DNA from: Raillietiella orientalis
Taxonomy: Eukaryota
Assembly (NCBI GenBank): GCA_036172245.1
Contig: JAYWIR010000001.1
Coordinates: 9,982,001 to 10,046,000, forward strand
Length of the DNA: 64,000 bases
Direction of reading: 5' to 3'
Below the pieces are notes generated by a model. It was not told the origin of the DNA, searched no databases, and worked only from the letters and a program-made list of their open reading frames with translations. The translations under genes were made by a program, and so were the position numbers. Shown one piece after another: positions 12,101-55,319 of the stretch (position 1 is its first letter; the number at the start of each line of letters is the position of its first letter).

Positions 12101-13214
12101 CGGGTCCACCCGCCAGGTCCCGAGGTTTCTTCTTCACGAGACACTCCCAGAACACCGAGGTGCCCCCCTGCCCCGTGGGCACTAGCAAGCTGTGGGACGG
12201 CTACAGCCTGCTGCACCTGATGGGCAACGAGAAGAGTCACACCCAGGACCTAGGTGAGCTCCGGAGCGAGGCGAAGGGCGCTGTCCCTTTCCTGCGCGCC
12301 AGCGCAAACGCCCCCGCCCAGGGTCCTCGGGGAGCTGTTTGCAGAGGTTCAGCCCCATGCCATTCCTCTTCTGTGACGTCAACGACGTCTGCAACTACGC
12401 GTCCCGCAACGACTACAGCTACTGGCTGAACAGTGACCAGGAGATGCCGATGACCATGGCGCCCATCACGGGAGACGAGCTCAAGAGATACATCTCCCGA
12501 TGCAGTGTCTGCGAGGCGCCCACCCACGCCATCGCCATCCACAGCCAGTCGAGGCAGATTCCCCGCTGCCCCAGCGGATGGTCCCTGCTCTGGGTCGGCT
12601 ACAGCTTCATCATGGTGAGGGGGCGCACGGGATCGGGAGTGGAGTGGGGAAAGAGGCGGGCCAGCAAGAGAACGGTGCCCTCCAGAGTTAATGGAGGTAG
12701 GGAAGAGGCCCCCGGCATGGGAGCGATGAGGCAGAGGGGCGGGCGTGGACGAAGCGGTGGGACGCTTCGCGAGGGAGGAGGGACGGAGCGCTCGGAGGCA
12801 GGACCAAGACGAGTGGACGCAAGGGAGAGGGGGAGGGAAGCAGTCCAGGGGTGGTCTCCAGGACGCACTCCTTCCTGTTCGCGACGGCGCTAAGGGAGAG
12901 ATCTCCGCCTCCCTTCTCTCTCCTTGCTTTTGCAGCACACGGACGCCGGCGCCGAAGGAGGCGGTCAGCCACTTATCTCGCCCGGGTCCTGCCTGGAGAA
13001 GTTCCGATCCGTGCCGTTCATCGAGTGCCACGGACACGGTCGCTGCAACAGCTACGCGACGGCTCTGACCTACTGGCTCGTCACCCTGGCCGAGGAGGAC
13101 CAGTTCTTGAAGCCACGACCGACAACCTTAAAGGCAGGACAGCTGACCGAGCGCGTCAGCAGGTGCTCCGTGTGCTTGCGCAACAAGCAACGCAAGGAGG
13201 TGCCCGTGGCGTAA
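3110..13214 (+). CDS. COL4A1: Collagen type IV alpha chain (alpha1-class NC1; resembles Drosophila viking / C. elegans emb-9), 32 traced exons, 5' signal-peptide exon not located
   Basis: Exons read by eye: 3110-3304, 3358-3402, 3467-3688, 5855-5917, 5969-6193, 6252-6413, 6466-6592, 6639-6788, 6837-7013, 7061-7225, 7293-7454, 7516-7697, 7769-7908, 7961-8070, 8114-8307, 8366-8572, 8631-8736, 8829-9008, 9132-9247, 9293-9383, 9439-9596, 9650-9845, 9907-10109, 10157-10256, 10570-10752, 10803-10920, 11345-11522, 11575-11659, 11840-12010, 12068-12253, 12322-12614, 12936-13214. Total is 5169 nt, divisible by 3. N-terminus [21 protein letters not shown] is 7S-like, followed by interrupted Gly-X-Y repeats and a C-terminal NC1 domain. 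Chain numbering (alpha1 vs alpha2) is less certain than the family call. Confidence 0.95.
12118..13214 (+). other. NC1 (C4) domain-coding exons of the collagen IV gene
   Basis: [11 protein letters not shown]...[15 protein letters not shown]...[39 protein letters not shown]...MPMTMAP...[10 protein letters not shown]...[12 protein letters not shown]...TTLKAG...VSRCSVC. This is the two-subdomain Cys pattern. The MPMTM and TLKAG motifs that carry the sulfilimine Met/Lys pair in collagen IV are present. Confidence 0.95.
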
Positions 13215-23700: not shown

Positions 23701-24996
23701 GCGGGAGGTGGACTCGCGGCCCCATTCCAGCGCCCCCATCTTCACGCTCCCATCCGTACGGCACCTGTCAGTAGAACGAGGCGTCCGCAACCCCGAAGGA
23801 ACGAGCAGCACTTCGCGCCCCCAAGCTTCGACCCGCACCTCAGGGCATGGATCGCCAAGCGCGCCGCCCACCGAGTGGAGTGGAGGATCTCGGCTCGGAG
23901 CAGTTAGCATCGCCGCGTCTGGGAAACCCTCTCGTGAGAAGAGCGGGAGTTGCGGGTCCCCTTGGACAGCCGGGCGCAAACGCGCCCCGGTGGGCAGTGT
24001 CGATCCTGTAAGGAATCTCCGCTTGAAGAGGTTTCCATGGGGAAGGAGGGAATTGGGAGTGGATGACCTCGACGCAGTCGACCGTGGGAGGCATCTTCCT
24101 TGTCCGAAATCCAGGGCCTCCTCCCTCTCACGCGCGCGCCAGATTCAGTGTGAGTATCGGGGTGTGCGCGCACTGCAGATCGCGACCCCGTTGCGCAATC
24201 CACTGCCTAATGGACACCGCGGATCGCCCAACAGCACTGCGCGCACGAGCAGGCTCGGCTGAAGGTGTGCCCGGTGCCTTGGTGCAGCGGGCGCGACGGC
24301 AGAAATGAGCATCACGTGACCTCGTTCCGGTACAATCTTGAGCGGAGGTCGGATTGCCTTGCGGAGCATCAGCCATTCTTGAGCTGGAGAAACCGGCTCC
24401 TTCTTTGGGATCCGTCCCTCGGGAGACCTAGAACGGATGGTTTAGAGGCTGGTAATGAGGATTCTCAGTCTCGCAGCAGACAGCTCGCCCACACGCAGCA
24501 GTCACCACAGAGCGCTCCCGCATCGTTACTGCGTCACGAGGATGGCCGGCGAATTGAGCCGCAGGACACGCGACCTCTGGGAACATCGAGCGACCAACAA
24601 GTTACCTGACCACCAAAGCGGGCATCTGTGAGGAAATGAAGATGAGAACCTTTCGAGAAGGCCAACTGGACCCGCTGACCAAGGTCGCCAACCTCTAGGG
24701 GATCCGAAAGGTGAACCCCGTTAGCTGTTGACGCGACTACGTGGAAGACAGATTTACCACCGAACGCTGAGGATGACCTCCTGGTGCCTTACCATGGAGG
24801 CATCCTGGGTGGCTCCAGACTGAAATACTGGACTGGCAAGTTCTGTGGAGTCTTATGGAGACAGAAACTTTCAAGGCCCGTGGAGACAGGTTAAACCCGG
24901 CTCCACGTTTTCACCTGCCCGACTCTGTGCCAGGATTGAACGACGCCGAAGGCGGTGACCGGCCTGCAGGCGAGCGCGAAGACGGAGGCCTCGACG

Positions 24997-26600
24997 TTTT
25001 CACCCGGTCAAGCCGGGGCGTTTATTTAAAAACTTTCGGTATTTGCGGTACAAGGCCCCGCTGCGGCCAATAAAACATAGGGAGCTGCCGGGTTGTCGGT
25101 ACACAGACCGACTTGACACTCCACGTCAGCGGAGGGGGATGGGGAAAACAAAAATAAAAATATAGGAAACTGAAAACACAAAGCCATAGTTCTTTGGAGG
25201 GCCGGGAAGGGATCACTGTCTGATGCGTAGAGTTTCCATCCTTTGCAGGATGCCGACGAGGTCCTTCTGCAGATTTCCCAGGTGGGGCCATCGCGTTGCA
25301 GGGAAGACCCCAGTGCAACAACAGCAGCGCCGTTTCCTGCCACTTGAGGGGGAGTGTGGATGCGTCTCTGAATAACGGGGGCCACTTTAGGTCATCCAAC
25401 GGGATGCCAAGCAGCTCGCCACATCTCTGGATTCCTCGCGGGAGAACGCTTGGGGTCGCGGCGTCTGCCAGTTCCCTCATGGTCCACCCACTTAACTCCT
25501 TCTCCTTGCCCGCTATCCGGCAGGTGACTTGCCACCTCGGTTTCCGGCTGTTATGAAGCGCCCTTCTCAGGAAGGTCAGCGCCGTGGCCAGTGGGGTCGT
25601 CTCCGCCCACGTGCTTCTGGCGGGACACTCGATCATGTTCCGCAGCATGCAGCGGGTGTAGATGCCGGGACGCCGAAGGTTGCAGGATTCTCCACTAGGC
25701 TGGTTTAACTTCGCCCACGTGACAACTGTTTTTTCCAGCCATGCGCTGGAGTTGAGGGGGCTGTAGATCATCCACGCATTCTCCTTCGCCAGGGTGGCTA
25801 TTCGTCCGAGGAGAAGGCCGCATCTTCTTATCTTCCTTCCACGACATAAAAGATGAGATGCAAGTCCTCCCGTTCCGGATACACGTCTGGCGAGGAGGCG
25901 GGCCGGAACACACCAAGGGGTGCTCCACAACTTCGCTGCGATGGCCAAGGTGCGCCATCGCAGCTGGATTTCCAAGCGCTCCAGCGTCAGGAGGCCTAGA
26001 CCACCATCTCGACGCGGAGCGCACAAGTCCATCAAAGGGACTCGGAGCCTCCCCTTGCCCCAAAGGGCGATGCGCAGGAGGTCCTTTGTCCTCTTTTTTA
26101 TCCCTGGACTTGCGCTCTTCGACCGTCTTCCCTCTCTGTGGGAAGGCGCCGTCGGCTCTGGGGCATTTTGCGTGGAAAGGGGGAGGGGAATGCACAGGCA
26201 AACCAGGCGAAGGTGCAGCTCGCCGGTTCCCACGCCTCAGCGATCGGGGTTTCAGAGACGCAGGCAGACCGTCTTCCCTCACGCGAGAAGACGGGAAGGC
26301 AAAAAATGAAGGAGAGGGTGTGGGTGCGGTCTTGGCGTCCGCATCGCCACCTGTCAGAAGAGGACCGCGAAAAGCGGTCGAGACGACGGGTGCGACCCCT
26401 CCCACGAGTTCCGCTGCCAATGCATGCGATGCCAGCTGGGAGAAGGGGGGGGGGTGACCGAAGACTTCTCGCACATCAAAAAAAGAAGAGCTCCCTTCTT
26501 TCAAGCCCCATAACTCCCACGTGGCCGGAGGGAGGAAACGGCACGGCATGAAGTTCGGGGAGCCGGGATCTTCCTGGACCACAGCATCTGATGAGGCGAT
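24997..26600 (-). mobile_element. L1/Tx1-like retroelement, 3' portion (copy A), internally deleted
   Basis: ORF 25022-26233 gives ALWGKGRLRVPLMDLCAPRRDGGLGLL...LPLKWQETALLLLHWGLPCN. An RT-start-like peptide DPGSPNFMPCRF lies near 26550. The conserved 3' terminus reads AATAAACGCCCCGG-CTTGA-CCGGGTGAAAA on the minus strand. Confidence 0.85.
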
Positions 26601-26689
26601 GGATCAGGCGATGGAGCTCTCCGCCTCGGAGGCGAGACTACGGGCCAGAGTGGAGAAGTAGGAAACGGGCGGGATGGGCTCTGCCAGGG

Positions 26690-28155
26690 CAACGGGCTCG
26701 CTCCCAGAAATTCATCTTCCTGGCGGAGCAGCGTGCGAACCTCCTCTCTCTCCCTCCCCCCTCTCCTCCTTCTCCCTTTGCTTTTTGTTTGCCCCACTCC
26801 GGAGAGGATTAGAAAGCGGACGAAGGACCTCATCAGGACCGCTTTTTGTGCAGTCCATGTCGGGACGGTGGTCTCGGCCTCCTCATGCGGAGCCACAGCA
26901 GCTACAGTTGTGGACGCTCGCCTTTGTGACGAAGTCGTGGAGCACCACCTGGTGCGACCTCGCAACTCATTCTCGTCCAGCAGGTCACCGAGAGCATGGG
27001 ACTCCTGTCCTTCCTTGCGCGCTGTCGACGCAACATCTCCCGCTGTGGACTGCAGCTTCGGCGAGTGGCTGCGCTCACCAGGATCAACAGCTGGATCTTC
27101 CGCCGCCCTGCGGACGGTAATGCCTGGTTGCAGGAAGCCGCCCGCGCGTGTGCGAGGAACCAGGGGACATGCACGGGACAGACACAGCGTTCGCTGAGCT
27201 GTTTCCATAACAACAGCTCGCTCCGGGAGATCGCGAAACACCCTCTGAAGTGTGCGTGGGCAAGAAGAACCACCCTTGTTGCAGCGCTGCTCTACCTGAA
27301 GAAACACTTGGGCAGAAGCCTTCCGGCTAGATGGAAGGTTACTGTGAACATCTGTGGAAGAAGGAAGGGACTAGGCATGTGGACGACGGACCAGCTTACA
27401 CTGCGACTCCGAGTGACTCACTCCAAAGACTTTGGCGTTGAGGAGAGCTACTAAGGAAGACCTCCAGAGACCTCCAGTGCTTCTGGACAAACGTACCCTC
27501 CCATTAAAGTGGCAGGAGTCCGCATTGATGATGATGCTGCACTGGGGCTTCCCGTGCAACGCCCTCCGGCATCACTGGACACGGTGTATATGTGGACCGC
27601 AGCTATGGCAGGTGCGGGGAGAGCGATCCCTCGAGCACCTGCTTGTGGGATCGTGTTGCCTTCCGCTCCCTCTGGGAACCCCTTGCCGCGACCCTAGGAA
27701 CCCCCGGCAGCAACTTCAGGGACTCCCTGAAACCCCTCCTCTCTCGCGACGCACTTCGGCCGGCAGTCTCGCCAGCAGCCCTCTGCTGCCTACGCGAGGT
27801 TGAGGAAGTCTGGAGCGACGCAAGGGGAGGGCGGAGCGACAGGAGAGCCACATCCTCTTTACCGTCCGCTTCCTGAGGATGGCAACGGAATGCCCCCCAC
27901 TGTACAATTCCATGAGGCAAGAGCTTGCAGGCATCCACCAAAGGATGCAGACAACCACCCCCAGCAGGACATGACCCCTACCCGCACACCCTCATAGTTT
28001 ATTTATTTTGATTTTCTATCCTGTTGTTTGCCCCATCTCCCCTGGTGCCGGGGTGTACCTCACCGACCCACGAACCGGTAACCCGGCAGGTTTCCGTTAA
28101 ATTACACGTGGTTTGACCACCGGTCCAACCACAGAGACTGTGGTTGAACCGGTTC
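26690..28155 (+). mobile_element. L1/Tx1-like retroelement, 3' portion (copy F), opposite orientation to copy A
   Basis: PLLFVCPTPERIRKRTKDLIRTAF, LPLKWQESALMMMLHWGFPCN and C..RGERSLEHLLVGSC (zinc-knuckle-like), followed by a degenerate version of the family 3'UTR stem-loop at about 28040-28090. Confidence 0.8.
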
Positions 28156-28501
28156 ACTCGTCTGCGCACCTCTGTCCGCACCTTGTCGTCTTCCAGGCTC
28201 CCGCGCGCGGCTCCGCCCTAGCATCAAGAAATCCCTTTCTTTTACGGAGGATCTCAGCGGCTGAGCGACTGGGACGGGTAGCGGAATCCGTGGTCAGTCC
28301 GGAACAGACTTACACTGTCCCCGGGCGAACCATGGAGGCCAACCTGTTCCTCGCCAGCACCTTTTGGCAGTTGCAACAACGCGAGGCTCAGCTAGGTCGG
28401 GGGAGTCCTGGACTCTCCACTGACCGGGGGGAGGGAAGCCAAGGGGAGAAGCGTCTTCCGGAGCCCTTGCGGTCACAGTCGATCTGCGTGAAGCTTTTCG
28501 A

Positions 28502-29422
28502 TTTTCACCCGGATTTCTCCGGGTCGTTTATTAAAAAATAAACTACAGTAAAAATGTCAGCGGCTGCAGCAATGCTGTAGGCAAGCACGAAGAACCACGG
28601 AGCCTGCCAGGTCACCGGTTCGCAGACCGGTACGGTCCACCACGGCAGCAGGGGGGAAGGGGGAAAGATAAAAAACTAAACAAAAAGAAAAAAAGAGTGG
28701 GAGGGTACGGGAAGGGATCATTGTTGCTGCTGGGGCCGCATCATCCTTCTCAGGATGCCGGCAAGCTCTTGCTGCATTTGAGGGGATCCAGGTGGGGCCA
28801 TAGCGACGCCCTCCTCAGGAATTGGGAGGCGAACTGGATGGCATCCTTATCGCGTGGTCCTCCCGTAGCCGTGCTCCATGCGGCGACGATCCCGCGAAGG
28901 CAGCACAATGCTGCTATCGAGGCCGCTGGCTGAAGGACTTCGGCAACGAAGAGGGCTTTCAATGCGTCCCTGGGGTTGCCACAGGGGATACCGATGGCCG
29001 CGGCAAAGAGGAAGCAAATGGGCCGAAAGGCAACACGATCCACTAAGAGGTGGGGGAGGGACTCCCGTTCCCTTCACCTCACACAGTTGGGATCGACCGC
29101 TCCCCAGGTCCAGTGGTGTCGGTGGGCGTTGCAGGGGAATCCGCAGTGCTGCAATAGTAGAGCCGACTCCTGCCATTTTAAGGGGAGGGTGGAAATGTTC
29201 ATAAGAACCGGGGGTCACTTCAGATGTTCAATCGGAACATCGAGCAGCGCTCCCCAGCGCAGAAGTCCATTGGGAGGCGTACTCGGGGTCGCAGCGTCTG
29301 TTAACTGGCCCGTCTTCCACTCTCCCTGCTTCTTCTCATTCCCGAAGATTTTTATCCTAACCTCCCACTTTGCCGCAACATCGCTGTTTTGATCTTCTAC
29401 TAGGGAGGCCAGCGCAGCAGCA
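28502..29422 (-). mobile_element. 5'-truncated L1/Tx1-like copy B with 13-bp target-site duplication
   Basis: Family 3' terminus at 28502-28532 and C-terminal ORF remnants (CGNPRDALKALF...ALCCLRGIV). Flanked by GTGAAGCTT(T)TCGA at 28488-28501 and GTGAAGCTTTCGA at 29423-29435. Confidence 0.9.
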
Positions 29423-29435
29423 GTGAAGCTTTCGA

Positions 29436-29922
29436 TTTTCACCCGGATTTCGCCGGGGCGTTTATTGTAAAATAAACATTTACAAAGACGTGCGGTGGCT
29501 GGACCATTGCTCCAGCCACGCACGAAGAAACACAGAGCCTGCCGGGTCACCGGTTCACAGACCGGTACGGTCCACCACGGCAGCAGGGGGAAGGGGGAAA
29601 AAACAAAAACAAAACAAAAAGAAAAGAAAAAACTGGGAGGGTAAGGGAAGGGATCACAGTTGCTGGTGGGGCCGTTGCATCCTTTGCAGGATGCCGGCAA
29701 GCTCCCTCTGTATTCCTGGATCCAGGTGGGGCCATCGGGACGCCCTCCTCAGGAACTGGGAGGCTGGCTGGATGGCACCCTGGTCGTGTGGTCCTCCCGT
29801 AGCCTTACTCCAGGCGGCGACGATCCCGCGAAGGCAGCACAGGGCTGCTAACGAGGCTGCTGGCCGAAGGGCGTCGGCAACGAAGAGGGCTTTCAGTACG
29901 TCCCTGGGGTTGCCGCAGGGGA
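29436..29922 (-). mobile_element. 5'-truncated L1/Tx1-like copy C with 13-bp target-site duplication
   Basis: Family 3' terminus at 29436-29466 and CGNPRDVLKALF...ALCCLRGIV. Flanked by GTGAAGCTTTCGA at 29423-29435 and 29923-29935. Confidence 0.9.
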
Positions 29923-30740
29923 GTGAAGCTTTCGACTGCGTCGACCAGGATCTCCTTTTGGAGCTTCTGGAACACATGGGATTTCCGGCCGTCTTCCTGG
30001 CCTACCTGCGCTCCTGCTGGCGCTTCGCGTTTATTAACATTAATTTCAGCGGCCGGCATGTGTACGGCGTGCCGGTTCGTCGCGGCATCCTGCAGGGTGA
30101 CAGCCTCAGCCCCCTGCTCTTCAGCATCTTCTTTGAGTTGGTGCTGAGAGCATACAGGGAGACTTTGGCAACCCTGCCGAGCTCATATCTCGGCACGCCT
30201 GCCGTGTCGGCCTATGCCGACGACCTTCTGCTCCTGCTCCCCAGGTCCACCCCGGCATGGGCGCTCGAGGATTTCTTCGAGTTGCTGCGCCGTGGGACAG
30301 GCCTCGAGGTAAACAGGGAGAAGTCGTCGATCATTGAATCGGACTCGTCGCGGGCAGGACGGTCGGACTGGATTCGGTTGGGGATCCCCACGGGCGGGTA
30401 TATCAAGTACCTCGGCGTTCTGTTGGGGGACTTCTGCATCGCAGAAGCCTGGTCCGACCGTCTCCAAAAGGTGGAGTTGGCGATCGGCCCGTTCCGGGAC
30501 GGCAAGTTCTACTTGCAGGAACGGGCTGCGGTGTGGAACGCCTTTGCGACCCCCCTCCTTCGCCCCCTACTTTTTGTGTGTCCCGCCCCTCCCCAAATTA
30601 GGACAAGGACAAGGGGCCTCATAAGAAAAGCCCTCTGGGGCAACCGGAGGCCCCGCGTCCGGCTTAAAGACTTGTGCGCTCCACGCAGGGACGGTGGACT
30701 TGGTCTCCTGACGTTGGAGCGGATGGAAACGCCGCTGAGG

Positions 30741-31550
30741 TTTTTCACCCGGGTGAGCCGGGGCTTTTATTACTAAAACTTTTTACAAGAAAAAAAATTC
30801 TATAATAAAGTCCTTTTCTTTTCACTGTTTTGAATGATTTTTTTCAGCCGTAGCACGTTCCGACTGTCTTGGGGCACTTGTCCTTGCCGACCCGTAGACC
30901 GATAAAGTCCTCCACATTGGCGCAGGGGCGGGAAAAATACAAATAAAACAAAAAAAAGAAAAACGCCTGGGGGGGAAAATGTTTTTTGGGAGGGGAGGAA
31001 AGGGAGGAGATCACGGTACGCCGCGAGGAGGCCTCTGCATCCGGTTTAGGATGCGAACAAGTGCCGGTAAATGTTTTTCAAGTCAGCGCCAACGGGAAGC
31101 CTTCACCAACGAGATGACTACCAAGTGGATGGCATTCCGACTGCTGCGGCCTCTTCTTGACGCGTTCCACTTGTCCAATATTCCTCGTATGCAGCAGAGA
31201 ACTTCAACACACGCGGCACCTGACACGCAGTTCCGCATCAGGAGGAGACGAAAAATAGTTTTAGGGTCGCCCACAGGAACGTTTAGTGCCGAATAGGATC
31301 GATCGCACGTTCGGCGGAGCGCAACACATTCGATGAGTAAGTGGGAGAAGGTCTCCCTTTCCCCGCACTCTGCACAATTGGCATCCACACTCCCCGATGT
31401 CCAGTGAGACAGGAGTTCTCTGCTTAAAAGTCCCCAATGGAGCAGAAGCAATGCCGTCTCCTGCCACTGCAGGGGAAGGGTGCTGTTGTCCCATGACTCT
31501 GAGGGCCACTTCACCTCCACCGGAGGCATGTCGAGCAGCTCGCCCAGCGT
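30741..31550 (-). mobile_element. 5'-truncated L1/Tx1-like copy D (divergent subfamily)
   Basis: ORF 31083-31529 gives LPLQWQETALLLLHWGL...CAECGERETFSHLLIEC (CCHC finger). The 3' terminus reads AATAAAAGCCCCGG-CTCAC-CCGGGTGAAAAA. It truncates the host RT ORF just after GGLGLLTLERMETPLR. Confidence 0.85.
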
Positions 31551-32237
31551 GCAGTCCAGACCGAGGCCACCGTTCCAGTGCTGGCAAAAGGGGAGGAGGG
31601 GTTAAAAGGGGAAAGACGAGATCACGATGAAGGGTTGCCTAGGAGCTGCCCGGCAGGCTGGGAAAAGATACGGGGAAAGGTGGGAGGAAAGGGAAAGGTG
31701 AGCAGAAGCTGCAGATGAGCATTTCGAAGGTAAAGGGTGGAGGGAACGCGGGAACGCATCTTCACGGGATCTGCGCTACCCTGGTGACCCCGATCGGTGG
31801 TGGCGGAGGAGGCGCTTTCTCCTCCACCACGCATCTCCGAAACATCGGGATCCTCTCCTTCGCGGGACCGCGGCAATCCCCCGCTTACGCTTTGCTGCCC
31901 TCTGCCGGCAGCTTCCCGCCAGCGGAAGCCGCGGGCGAAGGCGCGCCGGCGCGGGGGAAGAAGCGTGCCGGACTTTTCGCGTCGTTGGCGTCGAAGGGTG
32001 TCCTCCCGTCTGGAACGCACGAGATCGAGGACCCAGCGGCGGGCGCCCCGCTGCGGACGGTCGACCCTGAAGCCAGGCACGTCGCGAACACCTTCCGGGA
32101 CGTACGGCGACGAGCGCGCCACCACGCGAGCCCGGACCCGGCGCCGAGTTTCACTTTCCTCGCGCTTTCCCGCACCGATGCGCGCGCGCTGAAATTCATT
32201 GCAGCTCCTGACGCGGGCTCGGTCTCGAGGTGAGGTG

Positions 32238-32441
32238 TTGTCACCCGGGTACGCCCGGAGCGTTTATTTAAAACTCTACAAACGTGGTACGAGGCCCCAG
32301 TACGGCCATGGACACCGGACCTGCCGGGACGCCGGGACGCAGCCCGGCGTGACTCTCCTCGGCAGTGGAAGGGGATGGGGGAGAAAACAAAAATAAAAAT
32401 AAAAATGAGAAACAAAAAGATTTTGGAGGGAGGGGAAGGGA
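32238..32441 (-). mobile_element. 204-bp 3'UTR-only retrocopy (copy E) with 13-bp target-site duplication
   Basis: Family stem-loop and terminus are present. Flanked by TCGAGGTGAGGTG at 32225-32237 and 32442-32454. Confidence 0.88.
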
Positions 32442-32648
32442 TCGAGGTGAGGTGAGGGGAGGCTGCGTTGGCGGGGACGTCTGGAAGCGGGAGCGAAACG
32501 AGAAGTTTGAACGGAGGAACGTCGTCACCAGGGTCAACGCGATCCGTCCCCACGCTTGGTTTCCAAGCAGGCGACTTACGACCGAGGAATCCGACTGGGG
32601 CTTGTGCTCCCTTCTCCCCCCCCCCACTCGGGGAGGAGGAAGAGGAAG

Positions 32649-32818
32649 TTTAGAAAATCCAAATGTTCGCGACGTGCCGCGAGAAAGTACGCGAGTCGTC
32701 TATTGTTTCCAAGGGCAACAGTGTTCGGAGCATTGTTGCCGAACACAACAATGCTGTTTCCCGGAGGTAAAAATAGAATTCGACACTCCGCTGCATGCTG
32801 GAGGGCAGGAGCGCAGCG
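32649..32818 (+). repeat. Direct repeat copy 1 (partner at 35551-35768)
   Basis: Shared blocks TTTAGAAAATCCAAATGTTCGCG, CCAAGGGCAACA, AACACAACAATGCT, AAAATAGAATTCGACACTC and CAGGAGCGCAGCG. Confidence 0.85.
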
Positions 32819-35550
32819 GACCTCGCTTTTCTGCTTTGGCACGTGGGCGCTTCGGCGCCGAGCCGAGGCAAAAGAGAGCGTCTTCTGGGAACAAGAGGCT
32901 TCTCGTGGATATGCGGCAGAGGGAAAACTCGGCCGCATATTCGCGAGAGGTGCGGAGCAGCTCGGCTTTATCGGCTTGCACGATTTCCCGTTCCCGCGCC
33001 GTGGGCAGTTGCTGGGGTAGTCCATCACCGGGCACTTGGCGAGCGTTTCGACGAACATGGGGAGGGGGAGGGGAAGAAGCAAAGAAGAGAGAGAGAGAGA
33101 AAATGTATCCCATTTGCGACAGGTGCGTCTCCCTAGAACGCATATCCTTCAGCGTACACCCGCGCGAATACACTGCATACGGACCACGCGCCCAGTCGGC
33201 CGCAGGTGTCACTTCAACTGCGAATCCAAATTTAGCACGGTGGGGGAAGGGGGGAAGAGGTTCACGGGAAAAGGAAGCGCTTATTGCGGCCGTCCGCCGC
33301 CGTCCACGCGGGCAAACGGCCTTTTTTTTTTCATTTCACACGCCGGCCGTTTGCGAAGGCGACCTTCGCGGCTTGTCCGTTGGGCACGTACGGAAAAGGC
33401 GGAAACCAAACACACAGAAGAGGAAGAGGGAAAAAAAACAGTTTTCACTGCAGTTAATGATTCGCTTAACATCGTCGGCAGGGAGAAGTTTTCGGATGCG
33501 GCTCCTCCAGCAGGGGCGGTTCTTCGCTTTGCGGTTTGGCTTCGCGGGCGGAGCGGGAAATGTGGCGCAAGTCTGGAAGGATCAGCACTTTGTGAGAACT
33601 CGAGAACGGGTCGCGGAATGCGTCGGCTCGGGGATTTACCGTCGGCTGCCTGGGTAACGTCCTATCTGGTCCGTTGAACTGACATTATTTGCACTCGGCT
33701 ACTGGGATGATTCCTTCTTGCTCGCCTCCATGTTTCTTTAACCCGGCTTCGTTACAACTTTTATTTTTGTGTGCAGAGCGAGTTGCTTTGGAAGGAAGCG
33801 CACGACGGATGCTTACGTCACGTCGAACAGCCCTGAAGCAAACAAATCATGCAGGCGCGGGTCACACAAGTACACTATAAGGCACGACGCGAGTATGAAG
33901 ATGCGAGTTCGAAGACGCGCACTGCTGAGGTCCAAGACGGCGTGCCACCATTTTGTTTCCAGTTCACGACATTCCATGTACTGTCGAAATGTACTGTGGT
34001 TGTAGCGTATGTACAGCAGACTCGCGGGTAAATTCTCAACGGATACTACACCCCACCAGCAGCTTCTCTTCGTCATGTTTTTTCACCAGTAGTTATGGGG
34101 AGCGCTGTAAATTAAGTTTCTGGCAAAATAAGTGCCAAGAGTGTGTAGCGGTTTGCGTGTTTGAAGGGTATTGCAATGTATAAGATGTAAACGGCTCGCA
34201 AATGTGTTTAGCAGAAGGATGTAATGAATTCCAGAAGTGCGATTCCTCTGCGTCGTACGCATCAGAATGGAAGAGGCGAGTCAAAGAACGCAGTACCGTT
34301 TTGTACACGTGTATAAGAGTACCGTAATGTTTTCGGCAAACACTAAATGAGCCCGTGTTTATTTACTCTTTCCGTTCTTTCAGCGCGCGAGCTCAGAGCT
34401 ACGGGAGCGAGGGGGCTGCGCGCGTTTCGATCGCGCAGGATGTCTTTTGTCTCACGGAAGAGTCTAGAAGATTTCCCCGCTGCAGAACGAACCTCTAGCG
34501 AACTCGACGGCAACCGTTTGGTTCGTTTCCACGTGGGGGTTGGAATTCCGTTGTGCATGGGAACGCGATTCATAACAAATTCGGTCGCTTAATGGCTCGG
34601 GAGCTTCCCATCTATTATTTCTGATTTCATGGTTTTCTACGATCGCTCCGCGTATTTTCCTTACATCAGGGGAAAACGCGAGTCCAAGGCGGCATCCACG
34701 GCTTTGTGATTAAGAGGGGATCACGTGCATCTAATGTAAAAGCGATTCCTGTATGCTGGGATCCACGTGGAATGCATCCCAAAGAGGTGGCTGCTTTGGA
34801 ATGGAACAAAGATAAGCAGATGGTGGAAAAATTCGCTTCAAAGAGATCTGACGACGCAAGAGAAGCATTCCGGGAGATTGTGTAGTCTTCGCCGGTTCCT
34901 GTGCTTGCGACCAGATGTCTTCATCCGATCTCAATTTGTGCTCGAATCGATTTCCTTGGGGAATCGGATTCGGAAGTCACTCGGGGACCTCTGACCTTTA
35001 AAGGGTGCTGCTGCCCTGTGCTGCTTCAACTTTGCTTTTAATTTCGGAAATGCAGGAAACTTGGCTGAGCTCTGCAGCATCCGAGCGAACCAACTGTTGC
35101 CAAATAAATGGAAGCCCTGCCCTCGTAGGCTAACAGAAAAGGTAAAACTTGCAAAGAAATTCGATCCTTCCAAGGGGTTAACTAGGGGGAGCATTCGTGA
35201 GACCGTGTCAACGAGCGTCTCCTCCGAATTGCAGGCCTCCCCAGCGAACAGACTGCATCGTGGTTTATTGCCGTGAAAAGTGTGATGGGAACTGCAGCGG
35301 GGTAGTACCGCTGAACGAAGCGACTCTTCGCTTCCACGCTGGGATTCACCGGGAGCACGGACGAAAGTTTTAACACGTAACCGTTGGCAACTTATATGAT
35401 GCATGTTGAGTGGCGATATCTAGGAAAGATACACATCGAGTCGTTGGTGTTAAAACCTGCCTCCCGGTTAATGGACGGGCGAGAGAGAGGAGGAAACAAA
35501 GAAATAGACAAACGTCAGCATTTAAAATGTAGAAGCTAAATTTTTTTAAA

Positions 35551-39551: not shown

Positions 39552-42500
39552 TCACACGGTCATCTCGCGGTAGTAGGGGGAGGAGGCGAGTCCAAGGGTG
39601 GGCGTGGCCTCGAAAGTCGCCGTGAATTCCTTCCTGGGACGGTGGTGCTGCTGCTGTGCCGGGCGGCAGGAGGCGGGCAGGTGGACGGAGATGGACCCGT
39701 TGGGGGGTGCGCAGGGGCCTGTGGGTATGTCGGTCAAGGGGTTCATTTTCATGGAAGGGGTCGCCGGGGCCGGGAAGGCGAGACCGAGGAGCGTCCTACC
39801 GTCGTCGCCCTCCCCGTCCTCGCCGCCGCCGGGGCCATCTCGGGAGCAGCGAGCCGCAGCCTCCGTCGCCCTGGAGACGCTCTTGGACAGCAGGCGGATT
39901 CTATCCCTCTGATAGAAAACGCCCACGAAGATAAGGAGGTTGAGGAAGAGCAGGGAGCAGCCGATGGCTATGGTGGCCACCAGGGCGGTCGAGTTTTGCG
40001 CCACATAGCTGGCGACATCAGGGAAGGGGTCACTGCCGTCGGGGTCTCCTCTTGCCGGATGGGCCCACGGTGGAAGTGCCGTCGGGACATGGGGCAGCGG
40101 GGGCTGGGGACGCGTCTTTACTGCGCCGATGACCTCCTCGGTCCTCTTGGCAGCGGCGGTGGGCGGTGGCCTTCCAGAGGCACCGCTCTCCTCACATGCC
40201 TCCTCCTCCTCCGCTCCCACTGCCGCCTCCGGCTCCTGTTGCTGCAGAGGTGGGGGCTGGTCATGGGTGGCGTTCTCTTCGGGAATCCGGCGGACGGGGC
40301 CGTAATACAGGTCTTCGTCCCCCACGCTATCCAGGGCGTGGTGGGAGAGTGGCAGTAGATCGTTCCCGGAGTCGTGGATGTCCGGGATGAGTTTCAGCCA
40401 AAGGGAGAGCTTGTGGGCCCTGTAGTGGGACCGTACCGTGGGGCTCGCACCTAGGGAAAGGGAACGTTCAGGGAAATGGAGGGCGGAGTGGAGAAAAATG
40501 GGGCGGGAGAAAAAAGTCGGTTTCCTCTCCTTCCTTTCCTTCCCAAGCACTGTTTCCCTCGAACCCCTTTCGGCTCCGGGAGCCCCAGAAGCGCTGAGTC
40601 TGGGATGCCCGGATGCAGGGGATGGGACAGGTGGAGACAGGTGGGAAGAGATGGCTGCAGGATCGTCCTGACCCCTCCCTCCTTCCTCCCCCCTGCAGTG
40701 GAGCAGTTCGACTCCCAGGTCCTTTTCACCCTCCTCGGGAGCGGGACAGAGGGTCGCCCGTCTGGGAAGGGACTGCAGGCAGAGTCAGCGGAGGCTATCC
40801 AGACGCGTCCCTTTCGCCGTTCGCGCGTCTTCCTGTTCGCGCCCGTGCCTTCCGGGCGACCCTCGCGGCGGTTCCACGCCGCTCCTCCTTGACGTCCCAG
40901 TGCAGCACCTTCCCTGGCACGCCCTTCGTGGGCAGTGCCTCGCGACCGCCCGGCGCTCCGGAGGAAGGCACCCGATCACTCCTTCCCTCCACCTGCTCCT
41001 CCTCGGACGTCTGGGAAGCTCAGGGCGCTGGCGGAAAGGAGAAGGAAGACTTCCGGCACCAGAGATCCCGGCGCGGCTTTCTCTGGATGGGGGGTGTCGT
41101 CGATGCCGGCCCCACTTTCCCCTCTTCGCTCTCCCATCCTTTCTTTTTCACTCGGGCTCCCAGGACGCGCTCCTGCCCTTGTTTTCCCGGAGTCCGCCGT
41201 GAGCCGGCCGGCGAGAGTCGGAGGGGAAGAGACGGGACTCACCCAGCTCCAGGTATTTCTGGGTGCCCTGCTCGTAAGGAGGCCACTCGCCGAGCTGTGG
41301 AGGTGCCTTCCCGCTGCCTCCCGTTGCAATGGCAGCCGCCGTTGGGTCCCTGAGGAAGAGCAGGGAGAGAAAAGAGTGAGGGGGTAGGGAGACAGTGGCG
41401 GGGGGGAGAGTAACGGGTGCGCTCGCTGTCCTTTCCCCCGACTGCCGCGGAGGGGAAGTCTCACCCGGTCTTGGCGAAGTTGGTCCAGTAGGTCATCATG
41501 ACCTCTGACAGCAGCGTCCTCTTCCTGGAGCGCTCAGGGTCGGAGTCCTCCGCCGACAGGTGATCTCCGAACAGGTACGGCAGGTCATCTCCGTGGACGG
41601 TCCCCTGACCCTGAAGGGGAGAGGTTCGTCTGCTTGAGGGAAAGAACGGAGGGCCTTTTCCGTCCCCTCCCCAGTTCCGGCCCCTCCGCCTGCTTGCCTT
41701 TCTCTCGTCCACGAGGAGCCCCGGAGGGCATGTGGGCCAGGGGGTGCGCGGGGGCGCTCGCCGGGCCAGGACTACGGGACAGGCGCGCGAAGGCAGACAA
41801 CGGCGGGGAATCCTGGAAGGGTCGGACGAGCCCTGCGGCTGGATCCCGAAGGATTTCCGTCCCTCTAGGAGGAAGAAAGGCGAAGCAAAGGGGAGCTTTC
41901 CGTGCCGCCTTTCCGCTGGATGCAGCATCACGGTCCTGGTGCGAGATTTCCCGGGAAATCCAGGGCTCTCGACCAAGGTGTGCCACGGGAGCACCTTGGA
42001 TTTTCCGGGAAGCCGTCGGTCGGGACTCGCCGATCGTGAGGCTGGAGGGCGGGTCTTCGGAGCTCCAGTTCCGATCGCCGTCTCCGTGGCAACGGCCTCT
42101 CCGGTTCCCGCTTTCCCCTCCTCAGAGGGCTGACCTCTTCGCGCTCAACTCTGGGGCGGAAGCCCCTGAGTCCCGGGGGCCCGACACCCCAGTTTTCCTC
42201 AGCCCGGTGCGCGTTTAGGGCAGGACCGCGGCAGCCTTCCAGTCCAGCTCCGCACACGAACGGGAAACCATGTCAACGGCCGCTCGCCTGCCTGCGGGAG
42301 GCACCACCCCGTCCCTCTGCGAAGCGCCCGCTCCCTCAGGCTTCCCTTTTTCGGGGGTTCGTCAAGGACTGTAGAGCCGGGGGCTTACGAAGTCCTTTAA
42401 AAACTGCCCACGCCATCCAAGGGCGCATGTGCAGTCCTTCAACTGACAGGTGGTGGCCCCGCGAGGGGAGCACCCTACGAATCCAGGAAGGACTCCGGAG

Positions 42501-45500
42501 GAAGGAGACTCGTTACCCTCTCGCTCTTGGTAGGGTCCCCCGGAGGGAACCACTTCTTGCTCATTTTTTCCGGAGGGACCCCCCCAAAAAGATCCACTCC
42601 CTGTTTCCTCTCCTGAAGAGAACCCTGAAGGAATGCGCCCCGATTCCTTCAGAGGGTCGCTTCCCCAACGGCGCCTCTTCTTGAATCCTGGGGAGGCACC
42701 GACTGCCCCAGCTCCGTGGTGTGCGACGGAGAGCGCCCTCCCTCGGAAAAGGGACGGTCTCATCTTTTCAACCGGAGAGGGAGACTCCGAAGGGAACCAG
42801 CGCTCCTCGATGTTCTGGAGGGACCTCGAAGCATCGACTTCCGATACCATCCCATATACGGGCATACGGTTTCCATCGGTGACGTCACATCCGAAGCCTT
42901 CAGACCAACCAGCGCCATCCTGCGGGGGAGACTCGAAATACCCATGGCGTAGCCCCATTTCTCGGCGTCGACCCTTATACCCCGGGCGGAATTCGAACCT
43001 GCGACGTTCGCCGGCTCCGTGTCGGCCAGCGCGGGCAAAAAAAAATAAAAAAAGCCAGGAGAGACCTCTCCCCCTTCTCCCAACGAGGAGATGGTTACCA
43101 TGGGCTCCCCCGGGGCCTACATACATCGAAGCACCCACCTCAGGTCGACCCTCTTGCGTTGTGCAAGAGGCCGGCCTGAAAGGCGCCGAGTCTCTCGAAC
43201 GACACATTGGCGGTCTCGAGCGCTTCACGTCCGCTTCCTCTGGATGCTCCGCTCGCAGTGATCGCCATGGCAGCAGCCTCCAAGCGCCAGTCCGGATGAC
43301 AGGAGAGCTCTGAGGGATGCGGATCCTCGGGGCGGCCGGTCTGCGCGTAGAAGACGGGGGATTGGGTGAACCCAGCGGCCGGAAAGCACGGCGACGGGCC
43401 ACAGAAAGAGGGAAGGGGTGGGGGTCGCTCCCAGCAGGCTCCTGGGACGTTCCTATGTCCGTCTCGAAGGAAAGTGGTGATTGCACTTTCCCTTCCTTTT
43501 GCTTTCCTCGCCGTTGCCACGCGACTGCCGGCGAAGCGCTCGACGTTCTTTCGTCCCGGCCTGTCCGCTATCCCGGAGGGGCGATCTGGAACGAACCTCG
43601 TCCCTCCTCCTCCTCCTTCGTCCCATGCAATTCCTGCAGTTTTCCCCGGACCACTCCTTCTCCTCGCGAAGGAAGAAAGGGGCAAGGGGCCTCTGAGTTC
43701 ACGTAGCCGCGTTCCTATGGACACCGCTCGCAACCCAATCGACCGTTGCTACCTCCTGGACGAGTCCCTGCCGGGAGCGGAGGCAGATCCACCGTGCAAA
43801 CCTGCCATTGGTCAGGATGCCGGCTGTGCCACTGAGGTCTTGCCTGGAGTACGCGCGCCATCTGCCGAACACCTGCTTCTCTCCCTCTCTCTCCTGACGG
43901 AAGCGAGCGGGAGATACCGTCCTCGTGAGGTCCTCCGGGAAATTTCCGCGGGAACTGCCCGCCGTGGAGAGAACGTCCGTGTAGGATAGGCGGCGGGAAC
44001 GCCTTCCAGTGGGATCGCCCAACTTCATCCGGCGGAGGTTTCGGCCTCCGCCGTTGGGGTCTCCTCCCATCCAGGCGGGGAGCAGACGGAGCCGGGAGAC
44101 GAGCAGCTTCCGAGGGGCACAGCTCTCGCGGATCGATAGGGAGCGACCAGGAAGACAGGTGGATTCGCGGGTGCTGGCGTTCCCACAACGTCCCGCCGGT
44201 CCAGCGCAGTGTCACACTTCGAGCTGGCAAAAGCAAAAAGCGGGAGGGGAGGAAGTAAGGGGGGGGGGGAGGGAGGGAGAGAACCGGGTTGCGCGCCTCC
44301 CAGCTCCCGGCCTCTCGCCGCTAGCGGGGCGAGAGCGGTCAGCAGTGGGCCCCGGCTGCCCATCTCGTCGATTCGGGATTTTCCGGAGATTCTCTTTGGG
44401 TTGACCTCGGCTGCCTCCCAACTGCCTGGCGAGCGTAGCTGGGCTCCCGCCGACAATCTCCGCGAACTCCTCCTCGTTCCGAGGTCAAATCAAACTCGTT
44501 AGTGGCCTCGATCGCTCACCGCGGCGGGTCGCTGCTGCCCGTGGTGTTCGGGAAACGGTGAGGGCTGGTCGGAAAGTGGAAGGCAGTGGCACGGGGTGTT
44601 CTCCGCGGTCCGACCTCGCACGCCCTACCGGTGCGTTCGATGCACACTGTTCGCAGGGTCGGATTGTTGTTCGGTGTCACCCTGGTGTTCTTCCTCGAAG
44701 AGCACGCGCTCGCTCTCCCGGGGAAACCGGACTCCTCCACGGATGGCCGCACGCCCTTCCTACCTCCTTCGACAGATCCTCCCCGAAGCGCGGATCGCGA
44801 GCCACTGTCGTAATTCTTCGGATCGCGGTCAGTCAGAAACCTGAGGGATGAGTGAGCTCGGGCCCACCCGAGATTTCCGCAACCTCATCCTTCTTGACTT
44901 CTTCGTGCACCCTTCTTGCCAATGCGGTGGCCTCGCTCGTGCAGTCAGTGCTCCCCCTTCTCCCTCCTTCCCTCTTTTGCGGATGCGAACGGGATGTGCA
45001 GGCCTCGGTTGCTCACTACGTCACCTGGGGCTTCCCTTCGGTCGGCATTTCTCCTCCGAGCGCAGTGTCGCCCCAACAAAGGCCGCGCACGCCTATTGCT
45101 GTTAAGTTTAGAAGGGTCCGCTTAGGCTTTGGCGACCCGGTGTCACCGGCCTGCCCCGGCCAGGACCTCAGCGAAAGGGCAACCTGAAAGACGAAGGTGT
45201 GCATCCGAGAGGGCGTGGCGGGCCTCATCAGTGTTCAGATACCCACGCGGACAGCGGCGAAATCCCACAGCAACCCCTCGACTATTGATTGTCGGCGCTT
45301 CTCCCCAACTAAGGGTTCCTTCCACCGCTGCGGAAGAGCCTGAGTAGTCTGCAGCGACGCTGAGGGGAGAAAAGCAGCAGCGATCGCGAATGAGAAATGG
45401 AAGAGGGAGAAGAACCGGACGAGGACTATCCCTTCGGTGTAACCTAGTGCGATCTCTCGTGAGGTCCCTATTTGGCAGCCTACACTTGTACTGTGAGCCG

Positions 45501-54442: not shown

Positions 54443-55319
54443 CTGGAATCACCGCTTGAGACTCCCGTGGGAGAGTTGGCTAGTGACGGAAGCAGAGGAA
54501 AGCGCACAGCATCTGCACCGCGGTCCGCATCCCTGCCGGCAGGGAGGACGGAAAGATTCCGGAGGCCCTCCTAATGAGAACCCGCTGCTCCAGACTCGAG
54601 CGAGTCCGCCGGGTACGCTCCGCGTTCCCTCCCGGAATGGGAACCATTCTAATTGAAACACCGTAAAACACACACGCGTCCCGGGGGAACAGGAATCCCT
54701 CGATCGTGCCGAGAGTTGCAGCCTTCTCAGCATCCCGTATTCCGACCAGGGGATTTTTTTTTTGTGCGTGCGCATGCCTCGCTCAGACCAGAGCGCGGAA
54801 GCGCTCGCGGCAGTCTGGAGTTCCCACGTCTCTCTTCACGCACCTTCGCGGCTGCTTCCGTGTGCGTCCGGAGTCGCGCAGGGAGCTCTGAGCCGCGATC
54901 CACTGTCCTAGCCCGCGCTTCCTGAGGCCACGCGCGATGGCAACGGACATTCGCCGCCGAGAGGCACTCGTGAGGAAGCGGCGCGCGGGTGCCGGAAATG
55001 CGAAAGATGGCTTCCTCACGCCACCGGAATTTCCGTCCGGGACGCGTCAAGAAGGAAAGTTTGGAAGCGCCGCCTTCCGAACACGTCGGGACGACCTGGA
55101 GATCGATCCCGCCTATAAATCGTGCGATCTGCCCATTCTAGGCTCTACGAATTCTCCCGTGGATCAGGGAAAGCTCTGATCTCCACGCGGCTTATCCAGA
55201 ACTTTCCAGAGTGGGAAAGGAACGGCAGCATCTCCTTCGATCGCGTCTGCCTGTCGGGCCGGGACCATGGCAACGAGTGCCGATGTAAGGCATGCGGCTG
55301 CTTTATCTGCAGGCGGGAC

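Follow-up and report, generated by a model that had tools for sequence, protein, structure and literature searches.

L1-clade elements are the textbook "relaxed" retrotransposons, priming on poly(A). A cluster of L1-like copies at positions 24997-32441 of a 64,000-nucleotide stretch of Raillietiella orientalis DNA (contig JAYWIR010000001.1, positions 9,982,001 to 10,046,000 of the forward strand; the whole stretch is called the window below) raises the question of what defines the 3' end of such an element when its copies lack a long A tail. The original prediction, made from the letters of the window, was a selected cis-acting RNA element in the 3' untranslated region (3'UTR), possibly an undescribed signal for recognition by reverse transcriptase (RT) or for 3' processing. 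In our judgement, with a probability of roughly 60%, the structures are the 3'UTRs of a divergent L1-like (L1/Tx1 superclade) non-LTR (lacking long terminal repeats) retrotransposon with a "stringent-type" tail that is recognised by the element's own RT.

Seven broken, nested copies of one family were found at 24997-32454, A to E on the minus strand and F and G on the plus strand. The copies were mapped by blastn of five putative 3'UTRs and by tblastn with the family's pieces of open reading frames (ORFs) and with a close relative, protein P0002. Every structural and covariation statistic given below rests on the six copies A to F from one 8-kb nest, which represent about three to four independent lineages.

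Terminal motif and 3' ends

The 3'UTR of the family was ~216 nt long. After the TGA stop codon it comprised, in this order, a C/T-rich tract of about 85-95 nt, a 45-nt nested hairpin (stem-loop I) whose inner hairpin is located ~110 nt upstream of the terminal hairpin, 60-80 nt of variable and poorly conserved sequence, a T-rich segment that includes AATAAA, the terminal hairpin, and TGA plus 3-4 bases, mostly A. The opening of each 3'UTR was a near-pure pyrimidine tract of about 70-95 nt, first C-rich, then T-rich, then C-rich, with a complement rich in G runs (25130-25212, 28649-28717, 29584-29653, 30930-31010 and 32366-32441, all on the minus strand).

In the alignment, AATAAA-N4-CCGG-N5-6-CCGGGTGA followed by 3-5 bases, mostly A, was present in all five minus-sense copies. 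The fixed-gap form of this pattern was matched five times in the window against 0.09 matches expected, and five were reached in none of 100 shuffles; the terminal motif is beyond chance. The terminal hairpin had 5-6 bp with CCCGG/CCGGG arms and a variable loop of 4-6 nt, and AATAAA was located ~25 nt from the end in 5/5 copies, which is a normal cleavage distance. In copy A the motif spanned 24997-25026 (-), with AATAAA at 25021-25026, the arms CCCGG at 25013-25017 and CCGGG at 25003-25007, and then TGAAAA, the last base of the GTGAAAA end being 24997. The corresponding positions (AATAAA; arms; end) were 28527-28532, 28518-28523/28508-28513 and GTGAAAA at 28502 (not 28496) for copy B, and 29461-29466, 29453-29457/29442-29446 and GTGAAAA at 29436 for copy C. 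The motif was likewise intact in copy D (30766-30771; 30758-30762/30748-30752; GTGAAAA(A) at 30742), and copy E ended with GTGACAA at 32238 (AATAAA 32263-32268; arms 32254-32259/32244-32249).

Target-site duplications were used to define true ends. Copy C was flanked by TCGAAAGCTTCACT at 29422-29435 and 29922-29935, and copy E by CACCTCACCTCGA at 32225-32237 and 32442-32454; the duplications abutted GTGAAAA and GTGACAA, respectively, without intervening bases. These 13-14 bp duplications identify the ends of C and E as real element ends without a poly(A) tail. Copy B was adjoined by a third copy of the copy C duplication, and no target-site duplication was found around A or D. Since only 3-5 bases, mostly A, followed GTG in all five copies, there is no long A tail. 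The predicted terminus of AATAAA, a CCGG hairpin and GTGA(A/C)AA(A) without a long A tail was thus confirmed for 5/5 minus copies, with a short A run present. At the 3' junction of copy A (24990-25004, -), a 15-mer, GGTGAAAACGT(C/G)GAG, was observed that recurs 89 bp downstream (24901-24915) with 14/15 identical positions. The 90 nt downstream of copy A were examined for another tail of the family, and the similarity was not above that of shuffles.

The terminal 32 nt were 0.73-0.88 identical in 10/10 pairs of copies A to E. By block, identity was 0.72 in the terminal block and 0.32 in the spacer. For copy D, the most divergent copy, identity to B and C was 0.78 in the tail, compared to 0.50 across the final 265 nt of ORF2 and 0.49-0.51 across stem-loop I. 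Conservation of a non-coding tail above coding sequence is Ohshima's criterion for stringent L1 tails (PMC3472496). A tail conserved so far above ORF2 DNA suggests that the core signal is the AATAAA-hairpin-UGAAAA terminus, stem-loop I being a lineage-specific addition.

The following sequence of events would account for these ends. An RNA polymerase II transcript would be cleaved ~25 nt past AAUAAA, just beyond the terminal hairpin. The ORF2 protein would bind in cis to the structured tail, where the terminal hairpin would serve as core signal and stem-loop I as a lineage-specific second contact. Target-primed reverse transcription would begin from one fixed position among the first few A residues, and new copies would end in ...GGGUGAAAA, with 13-14 bp target-site duplications, the usual 5' truncation and no long poly(A). 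Cleavage and polyadenylation at the tail site, protein binding and the start point of reverse transcription are steps that we infer by analogy with known elements.

The structures could be real and yet serve the transcript: the hairpin, placed between AAUAAA and the cleavage site, would define or protect the RNA 3' end, stem-loop I together with the pyrimidine tract would have a role in export, stability or translation, and the lack of a tail would result from priming at the very start of poly(A). Such a role agrees with the AATAAA that is invariant in 5/5 copies at a normal cleavage distance and with the report that L1 of all vertebrates examined end in AATAAA (PMC5381506, in excerpt); moreover, a terminal hairpin without covariation has nothing that ties it specifically to RT. 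A pure processing role, however, leaves unexplained the fixed start of the cDNA, which is seen as 3-5 mostly A bases after GTG in every one of the five copies. Copies of poly(A)-primed L1 keep long tails, unlike the copies here, and conservation of the tail above coding DNA across subfamilies is as found in stringent LINEs (long interspersed nuclear elements). A histone 3' stem-loop or other processing element gained no Rfam match at 24500-33000. We consider this explanation unlikely.

The Rfam search covered 24500-33000 on both strands at E <= 1 and returned no ribozyme, histone stem-loop or other family. A match to RefA1 (E 0.22, 22 bits versus a gathering score of 94) was rejected as chance. 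Self-cleavage, which had been suggested as an experiment, is left unsupported by this search, in which no ribozyme was matched. On the window, covariance model R1 retrieved only the six training copies, the next match having 12 bits (E 0.76). A loose search for the loop motif performed at chance level (20 matches versus 16.4 expected). No relative was detected in protein-guided scans of metagenome, genome and viral contigs. Scans with the tail pattern gave 7 viral and 46 prokaryotic loci; none of these 53 yielded a credible match to the stem-loop I model, and the best match (17.6 bits, E 0.013) overlaps the tail pattern itself.

Stem-loop I and its covariation

Stem-loop I, with an asymmetric internal loop and a CUGYGW apical loop, was located at 25085-25129 (copy A), 28604-28648 (B), 29539-29583 (C) and 32321-32365 (E) on the minus strand and at 28045-28089 in copy F on the plus strand. 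The inner hairpin had the arms and loops GTCGGT-CTGTGT-ACCGAC in A (25094-25113), ACCGGT-CTGCGA-ACCGGT in B, ACCGGT-CTGTGA-ACCGGT in C and GCCGGG-CTGCGT-CCCGGC in E. All six core pairs were kept in each of these four copies (24/24), and the loop CTGYGW was conserved while the stem letters changed. Two copies were degenerate: F had ACCGAC-CCACGA-ACCGGT with two mismatches (4/6 pairs), and in D the homologue at 30885-30904 (-), ATCGGT-CTACGG-GTCGGC, paired only through G.U. The variants in A, B, C and E and the degenerate versions in D and F were exactly as the original prediction gave them. Its outer stem, CTG(A/C)CG...(C/T)GGCAG, was also recovered, in A (CTGACG/CGGCAG, with a single A.G mismatch), B (with a single G.U), C and E and for the most part in F, and was lost in D.

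When the 47-nt stem-loop I was folded in isolation, copies B, C and E gave one identical fold (z-scores of -1.8, -2.4 and -3.3), in which a 6-bp outer stem is followed by a 1-nt bulge, 3 bp and a one-sided internal loop of 6 nt, and then by a 7-bp inner stem with a loop of 6 nt. Copy A kept the inner hairpin (z -0.24), F the outer stem only, and D neither. RNAalifold on five copies independently predicted the inner hairpin and the terminal hairpin. The z-scores of the whole 3' regions were -0.68 (A), -2.06 (B), -4.47 (C), -1.20 (D) and -1.38 (E). A second hairpin in the middle region was rejected as a conserved element; strong z-scores were limited to C (-4.06, with the hairpin following stem-loop I) and F (-3.48, a long hairpin at 28119-28153, +), and it was not significant in A, B and E. 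RNAalifold also favoured a small hairpin, CCUCC...GGAGG (alignment columns 3-20; e.g. 29574-29590, -), in competition with the outer stem's 5' arm. The modelled 5' arm of stem-loop I may switch between two pairings.

Covariation was evaluated for the inner helix and for the whole of stem-loop I. In the inner helix, 3/7 pairs changed on both sides and still paired, and 88.1% of the cells were paired versus 17-45% with the partner slid by 1-3 columns. Its covariation score was 0.438 compared to 0.295 +/- 0.072, reached by 24/500 shuffles (n=6). For the whole stem-loop, 85.1% of pair cells were standard versus 19-41% with partners slid by 1-3 columns, and the score was 0.254 compared to 0.179 +/- 0.033, reached by 15/500 shuffles. 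In a toy simulation in which each of three branches received two substitutions, a stem of 6 bp remained fully paired in both tips with P 5.5e-5 (Watson-Crick only) or 8e-4 (G.U allowed); these values are conditional and ignore that the hairpin was chosen after looking. The covariation of the inner hairpin is suggestive, not decisive. The inner hairpin is probably under selection, and the case rests on about three independent lineages. The covariation that had been claimed for the structure rests on the inner helix (6-7 bp, six copies, 3/7 double changes); the outer stem and the terminal hairpin are conserved or invariant and do not covary.

Several results weigh against a structured tail that is read by RT. 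Copy D keeps the tail and not stem-loop I, so stem-loop I is not universally required. The arms of the terminal hairpin are invariant, which provides no covariation evidence for an RNA structure as opposed to a sequence motif. The outer stem is conserved without covariation, and RNAalifold chose the competing CCUCC/GGAGG hairpin in its place. Shuffle support for both covariation scores is modest with so few lineages, and the pair-count measures were not significant (reached in 101/500 and 168/500 shuffles). Isolated stem-loop I of A, F and D was no more stable than shuffles, and among the whole 3' regions of 134-149 nt the model was fully recovered only in C (1/5). In the test for strand asymmetry of wobble pairs, seven G.U cells equalled seven A.C cells. 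Finally, no short interspersed nuclear element (SINE) sharing the tail was found in the 64 kb; all matches to the tail pattern and to the model were the LINE copies themselves.

Part of these results would also be expected if no structure had been selected, with the hairpins as by-products of CCGG- and GC-rich sequence, the tail as common descent, and the three compensated pairs as chance or gene conversion among nested copies. The sample is small, with shuffle support only near the 5% level. Alternative long-range pairings among CCGG-rich segments win the minimum-free-energy folds of A and E, A, D and F are no stabler than shuffles, the G.U and A.C counts are equal, and the second hairpin is strong in C and F only. 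Against this stand the 24/24 inner-stem pairs that were kept in A, B, C and E despite three double changes, which is improbable in the toy model. Slid registers pair in 17-45% only, and the CTGYGW loop is conserved while the stem letters vary. An identity of 0.78 in the terminal block where ORF DNA has 0.50 is the opposite of neutral decay. We regard absence of selection as quite improbable.

The inverted repeats could further act on DNA or on the antisense strand, as a protein-binding palindrome or as a signal in first-strand cDNA with its G-rich complement. The arms are CCGG-centred palindromes, the complement of the tract at the 5' end of the 3'UTR has many G runs, and a wobble bias for the sense strand was not seen; with G.U and A.C equal at seven, wobble pairs fail to single out the sense RNA strand. 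Positive evidence for a DNA or antisense role was none, and the extreme 3' position in an element that uses target-primed reverse transcription, together with the parallels to RT-bound RNA tails, favours sense RNA. This explanation is very improbable. The preferred explanation, a stringent-type tail read as RNA by the element's RT, retains from the original prediction a selected cis-acting element in so far as the tail exceeds coding DNA in conservation and the inner stem kept its pairing through double changes; covariation extends to one helix in six copies and not to the remainder of the structure.

Family identity, nested copies and insertion sites

Protein domains were searched with Pfam in 133 stop-to-stop frames, each of at least 165 aa, across the window. 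Retroelement domains were located only within 24997-32441. These were RVT_1 (E 4.2e-13) in the plus-strand frame 29427-30773 (copy G) and a weak zf-RVT (E 1.1e-4; 23.2 bits, under the cut-off of 27.5 bits) in the minus-strand frame 31086-31601 (copy D), where the knuckle has the form CX2CX7HX4C. Copy G was 73% identical to P0002, the only close database relative of the family. Compared to solved structures, P0002 matched human L1 ORF2p with 7e-40 to 5e-39 over residues 3-397 and R2 proteins with 7e-17 or weaker over shorter RT stretches; the comparison is one-sided, because no other clade with an apurinic/apyrimidinic endonuclease (APE-type) has a solved structure. The RVT_1 match on G, the weak zf-RVT on D and human L1 ORF2p as the best match of P0002 agree with the predicted identity of the copies as 3' parts of an L1-like LINE.

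In a large protein collection, 93 proteins were found at E <= 1e-8, P0002 itself included. The next best match had an E-value of 1.6e-41 at 28% identity; relatives whose identity is quoted were 23-32% identical to P0002, and no other was close. Many of the best relatives carry Exo_endo_phos, RVT_1 and zf-RVT, and their hosts are ticks, frogs, fish and plants. PF03372 is present in relatives at 26-30% identity, and PF13966 in distant relatives. The nearest named relatives of the lineage are <=30% identical. A search of the ESM Atlas returned generic RT clusters only; a cluster "Transposon TX1" scored 0.88, which is below the reliable range. The copies have neither a poly(A) tail nor an A-rich (TT/AAAA-type) target, the duplications beginning with TCGAAAG... 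and CACCTCA.... These two features define mammalian-type L1 and are not universal in the clade (PMC3472496, Table 1). By sequence comparison, an assignment of the family to a deep L1/Tx1-like branch is reasonable.

The assignment of plus- and minus-strand copies to one family is based on DLCAPRRDGGLGLLTLER, which is common to A, G and P0002. The coding parts were decayed in all copies, and no intact ORF2 was present within the window. In tblastn, no copy in the window reached the 5' half of the element, and none extended to the endonuclease. No family members were detected outside 24997-32454 in the 64-kb window by blastn and tblastn.

Copy A (24997-26140, -) was delimited by tblastn of P0002 and the other copies; it comprises a decayed C-terminal part of ORF2 with the zinc-knuckle region deleted, the stop codon at 25213-25215 and a 216-nt 3'UTR (24997-25212). 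Copy F (~26784-28153, +) carries a decayed and frameshifted C-terminal part of ORF2 with its stop codon at 27972-27974. Downstream of this stop (27975-28260, +), no recognisable AATAAA-hairpin terminus was observed before the start of the copy G coding sequence; the tail may be deleted, displaced or different. Copy G consists of two pieces on the plus strand. The 5' piece (28260-28501) is an RT fragment that ends with ...VTVDLREAF codons and the duplication copy at 28488-28501. The 3' piece (29922-30741) contains the RVT_1 domain through ...DGGLGLLTLERME, is 72-73% identical to P0002 and is cut short by copy D.

Copy B (28502-29421, -) has a decayed C-terminal ORF2 part with in-frame stops and frameshifts (stop codon 28718-28720) and a 216-nt 3'UTR. 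Copy C (29436-29921, -) is 5'-truncated and retains the last 88 codons of ORF2 (stop codon 29654-29656) and a 218-nt 3'UTR. Copy D (30742-31601, -) belongs to a divergent subfamily; it has an open C-terminal ORF2 piece of 172 aa that contains the knuckle, and a 3'UTR from 31010 to 30742. Copy E (32238-32441, -) consists of 204 nt and is a 3'UTR alone. It begins at the first base past the ORF2 stop codon, and GA microhomology with the duplication renders the junction ambiguous by 2 nt. Its start may reflect a chance 5' truncation that coincides exactly with the UTR boundary, or it may hint at non-autonomous copies made of the UTR only.

The duplication next to B and C, TCGAAAGCTTCAC(T), has 13-14 bp and is present three times, at 28488-28501 (with one extra A), 29422-29435 and 29922-29935. 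Copy C (486 bp) and copy B (920 bp) are located between these repeats, with 29422-29435 as the middle repeat between them. B and C are 84-86% identical and differ in their 5' truncation points. An identical 13-bp site with different truncation points indicates two independent insertions at identical nick sites. The shared site is located inside the ...VDLREAFD... codons of the RT motif of copy G. Copy D was also inserted into copy G (30741/30742), just after the ...GGLGLLTLERME codons, so that 3/5 minus-strand copies are inside one plus-strand copy as a self-nested cluster. This arrangement hints at a Tx1-like target preference for the family's own RT gene. As the flanks of A, D and E are unrelated, the site preference is only a lead.

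The GC content of the host window was ~0.49-0.66 in 2-kb steps (GC-rich), and its genes are animal-type. The nest is flanked by host genes: a type IV collagen gene (~5600-12900, +) and a multi-exon gene of the carboxylesterase family (~41500-54500, -). In Pfam, the former gave collagen triple-helix repeats and the type IV collagen C4 domain (E 4.9e-36) at ~5.6-12.9 kb on the plus strand, and the latter carboxylesterase pieces at 41.5-54.5 kb on the minus strand.

Comparison with known tails and significance

Tails of this kind are already known. Stringent L1 lineages have been identified in maize and sorghum and in Chlamydomonas, all with poly(A) repeats; some algal L1 families lack a 3' repeat, and in Chlamydomonas an L1 tail is shared with a SINE (PMC3472496). 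The closest parallels are the monocot LINE1-1_ZM group (with ZmSINE2 and ZmSINE3) and Chlamydomonas L1-1_CR. Like the family described here, they belong to the L1 superclade and have a 3'-terminal block far above the rest of the element in conservation (PMC3472496; review PMC3747384). They also show compensatory stem changes and conserved loop bases, with RT recognition inferred. They differ in their plant and green-algal hosts, their poly(A) repeat ends and their known SINE partners. Here, in contrast, the host has animal-type genes, poly(A) is absent, the covarying hairpin is located ~110 nt upstream of an invariant terminal hairpin, and the 64 kb showed no SINE partner. The suggestion of an "undescribed" signal was accordingly wrong as to its kind, since it is well established that stringent-type 3' stem-loops can have compensatory changes together with conserved loop bases (PMC3472496). 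What differs here is the combination of animal-type host genes, the lack of poly(A) despite an intact AATAAA, and an invariant terminal hairpin with a covarying stem-loop upstream.

The L2-clade elements UnaL2 of eel and ZfL2-1 and ZfL2-2 of zebrafish, whose tails have been proven by experiment, likewise have a terminal stem-loop with an internal loop or bulge, a short fixed 3' sequence and no poly(A), and their ORF2 protein binds the stem and the loop of the tail hairpin (PMC4176376 and PMC5135761, both in excerpt). According to the same papers, RT-bound LINE tails typically contain a hairpin whose asymmetric internal loop is only a few bp away from the apical loop. By analogy, the present element probably works like the UnaL2 and ZfL2 tails. 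UnaL2 and ZfL2 differ in their LINE clade and in ends of short tandem repeats such as (TGTAA)n in place of AAUAAA-hairpin-UGAAAA, and they have no sequence similarity to the present tail. The R1-clade element SART1 and R2 have structured 3'UTRs with several hairpins that are required for a precise start of reverse transcription, and in SART1 the essential stem-loop can be central rather than terminal (PMC5135761 and PMC3472496, in excerpt). The clades, endonuclease types and targets of these two differ from those here, and SART1 carries poly(A) (same excerpts).

Vertebrate L1 3'UTRs (lizard, frog) resemble those described here in a C- or T-rich pyrimidine tract followed by AATAAA (Boissinot and Sookdeo 2016, PMC5381506, in excerpt), and their target-site duplications of ~13-14 bp are of the same length. 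These vertebrate L1 all end in poly(A), whereas in the present family AATAAA precedes a conserved hairpin, the copies stop after 3-5 mostly A bases, and the duplications are not A-rich at their start. Elements of the Tx1 clade (Tx1L, Keno, Kibi/Koshi, Tx1-Mar) are related to L1 and often insert at defined sites within other transposons, as B and C share one site in another copy (PMC4494074, in excerpt). Strict site specificity was not seen here, the flanks of A, D and E being unrelated, and the likeness is one of insertion pattern. Crocodilian SINEU, presumably mobilised by Tx1-Mar, have poly(A) tails (PMC4494074, in excerpt).

A more far-reaching reading would combine all of these features. 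The family would be a deep, animal-hosted L1/Tx1-like lineage that has retained or acquired stringency by means of a bipartite signal, an invariant hairpin set between AAUAAA and the cleavage site that fixes the first templated base and a covarying CUGYGW stem-loop upstream, and that preferentially targets its own RT gene and so forms nested clusters. It would then be the first tail-less stringent L1-type element to be described in an animal-type genome. We consider this combination rather improbable and put it forward as speculation.

In a survey of 2012, stringency was shown only for the maize and sorghum lineage and for one Chlamydomonas element among >800 L1-clade families (PMC3472496). 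If the stringent-type interpretation is true, an L1-like lineage among animal-type genes that ends after a conserved hairpin would be a data point on whether stringency is the ancestral state of the L1 clade, relaxed on several occasions. The terminal hairpin of ~30 nt and the 45-nt stem-loop would form, with the ORF2 protein, a compact RNA-protein pair for studies of template choice by L1-type ORF2 proteins. The tail motif is also a precise annotation marker for the 3' ends of this L1-like family.

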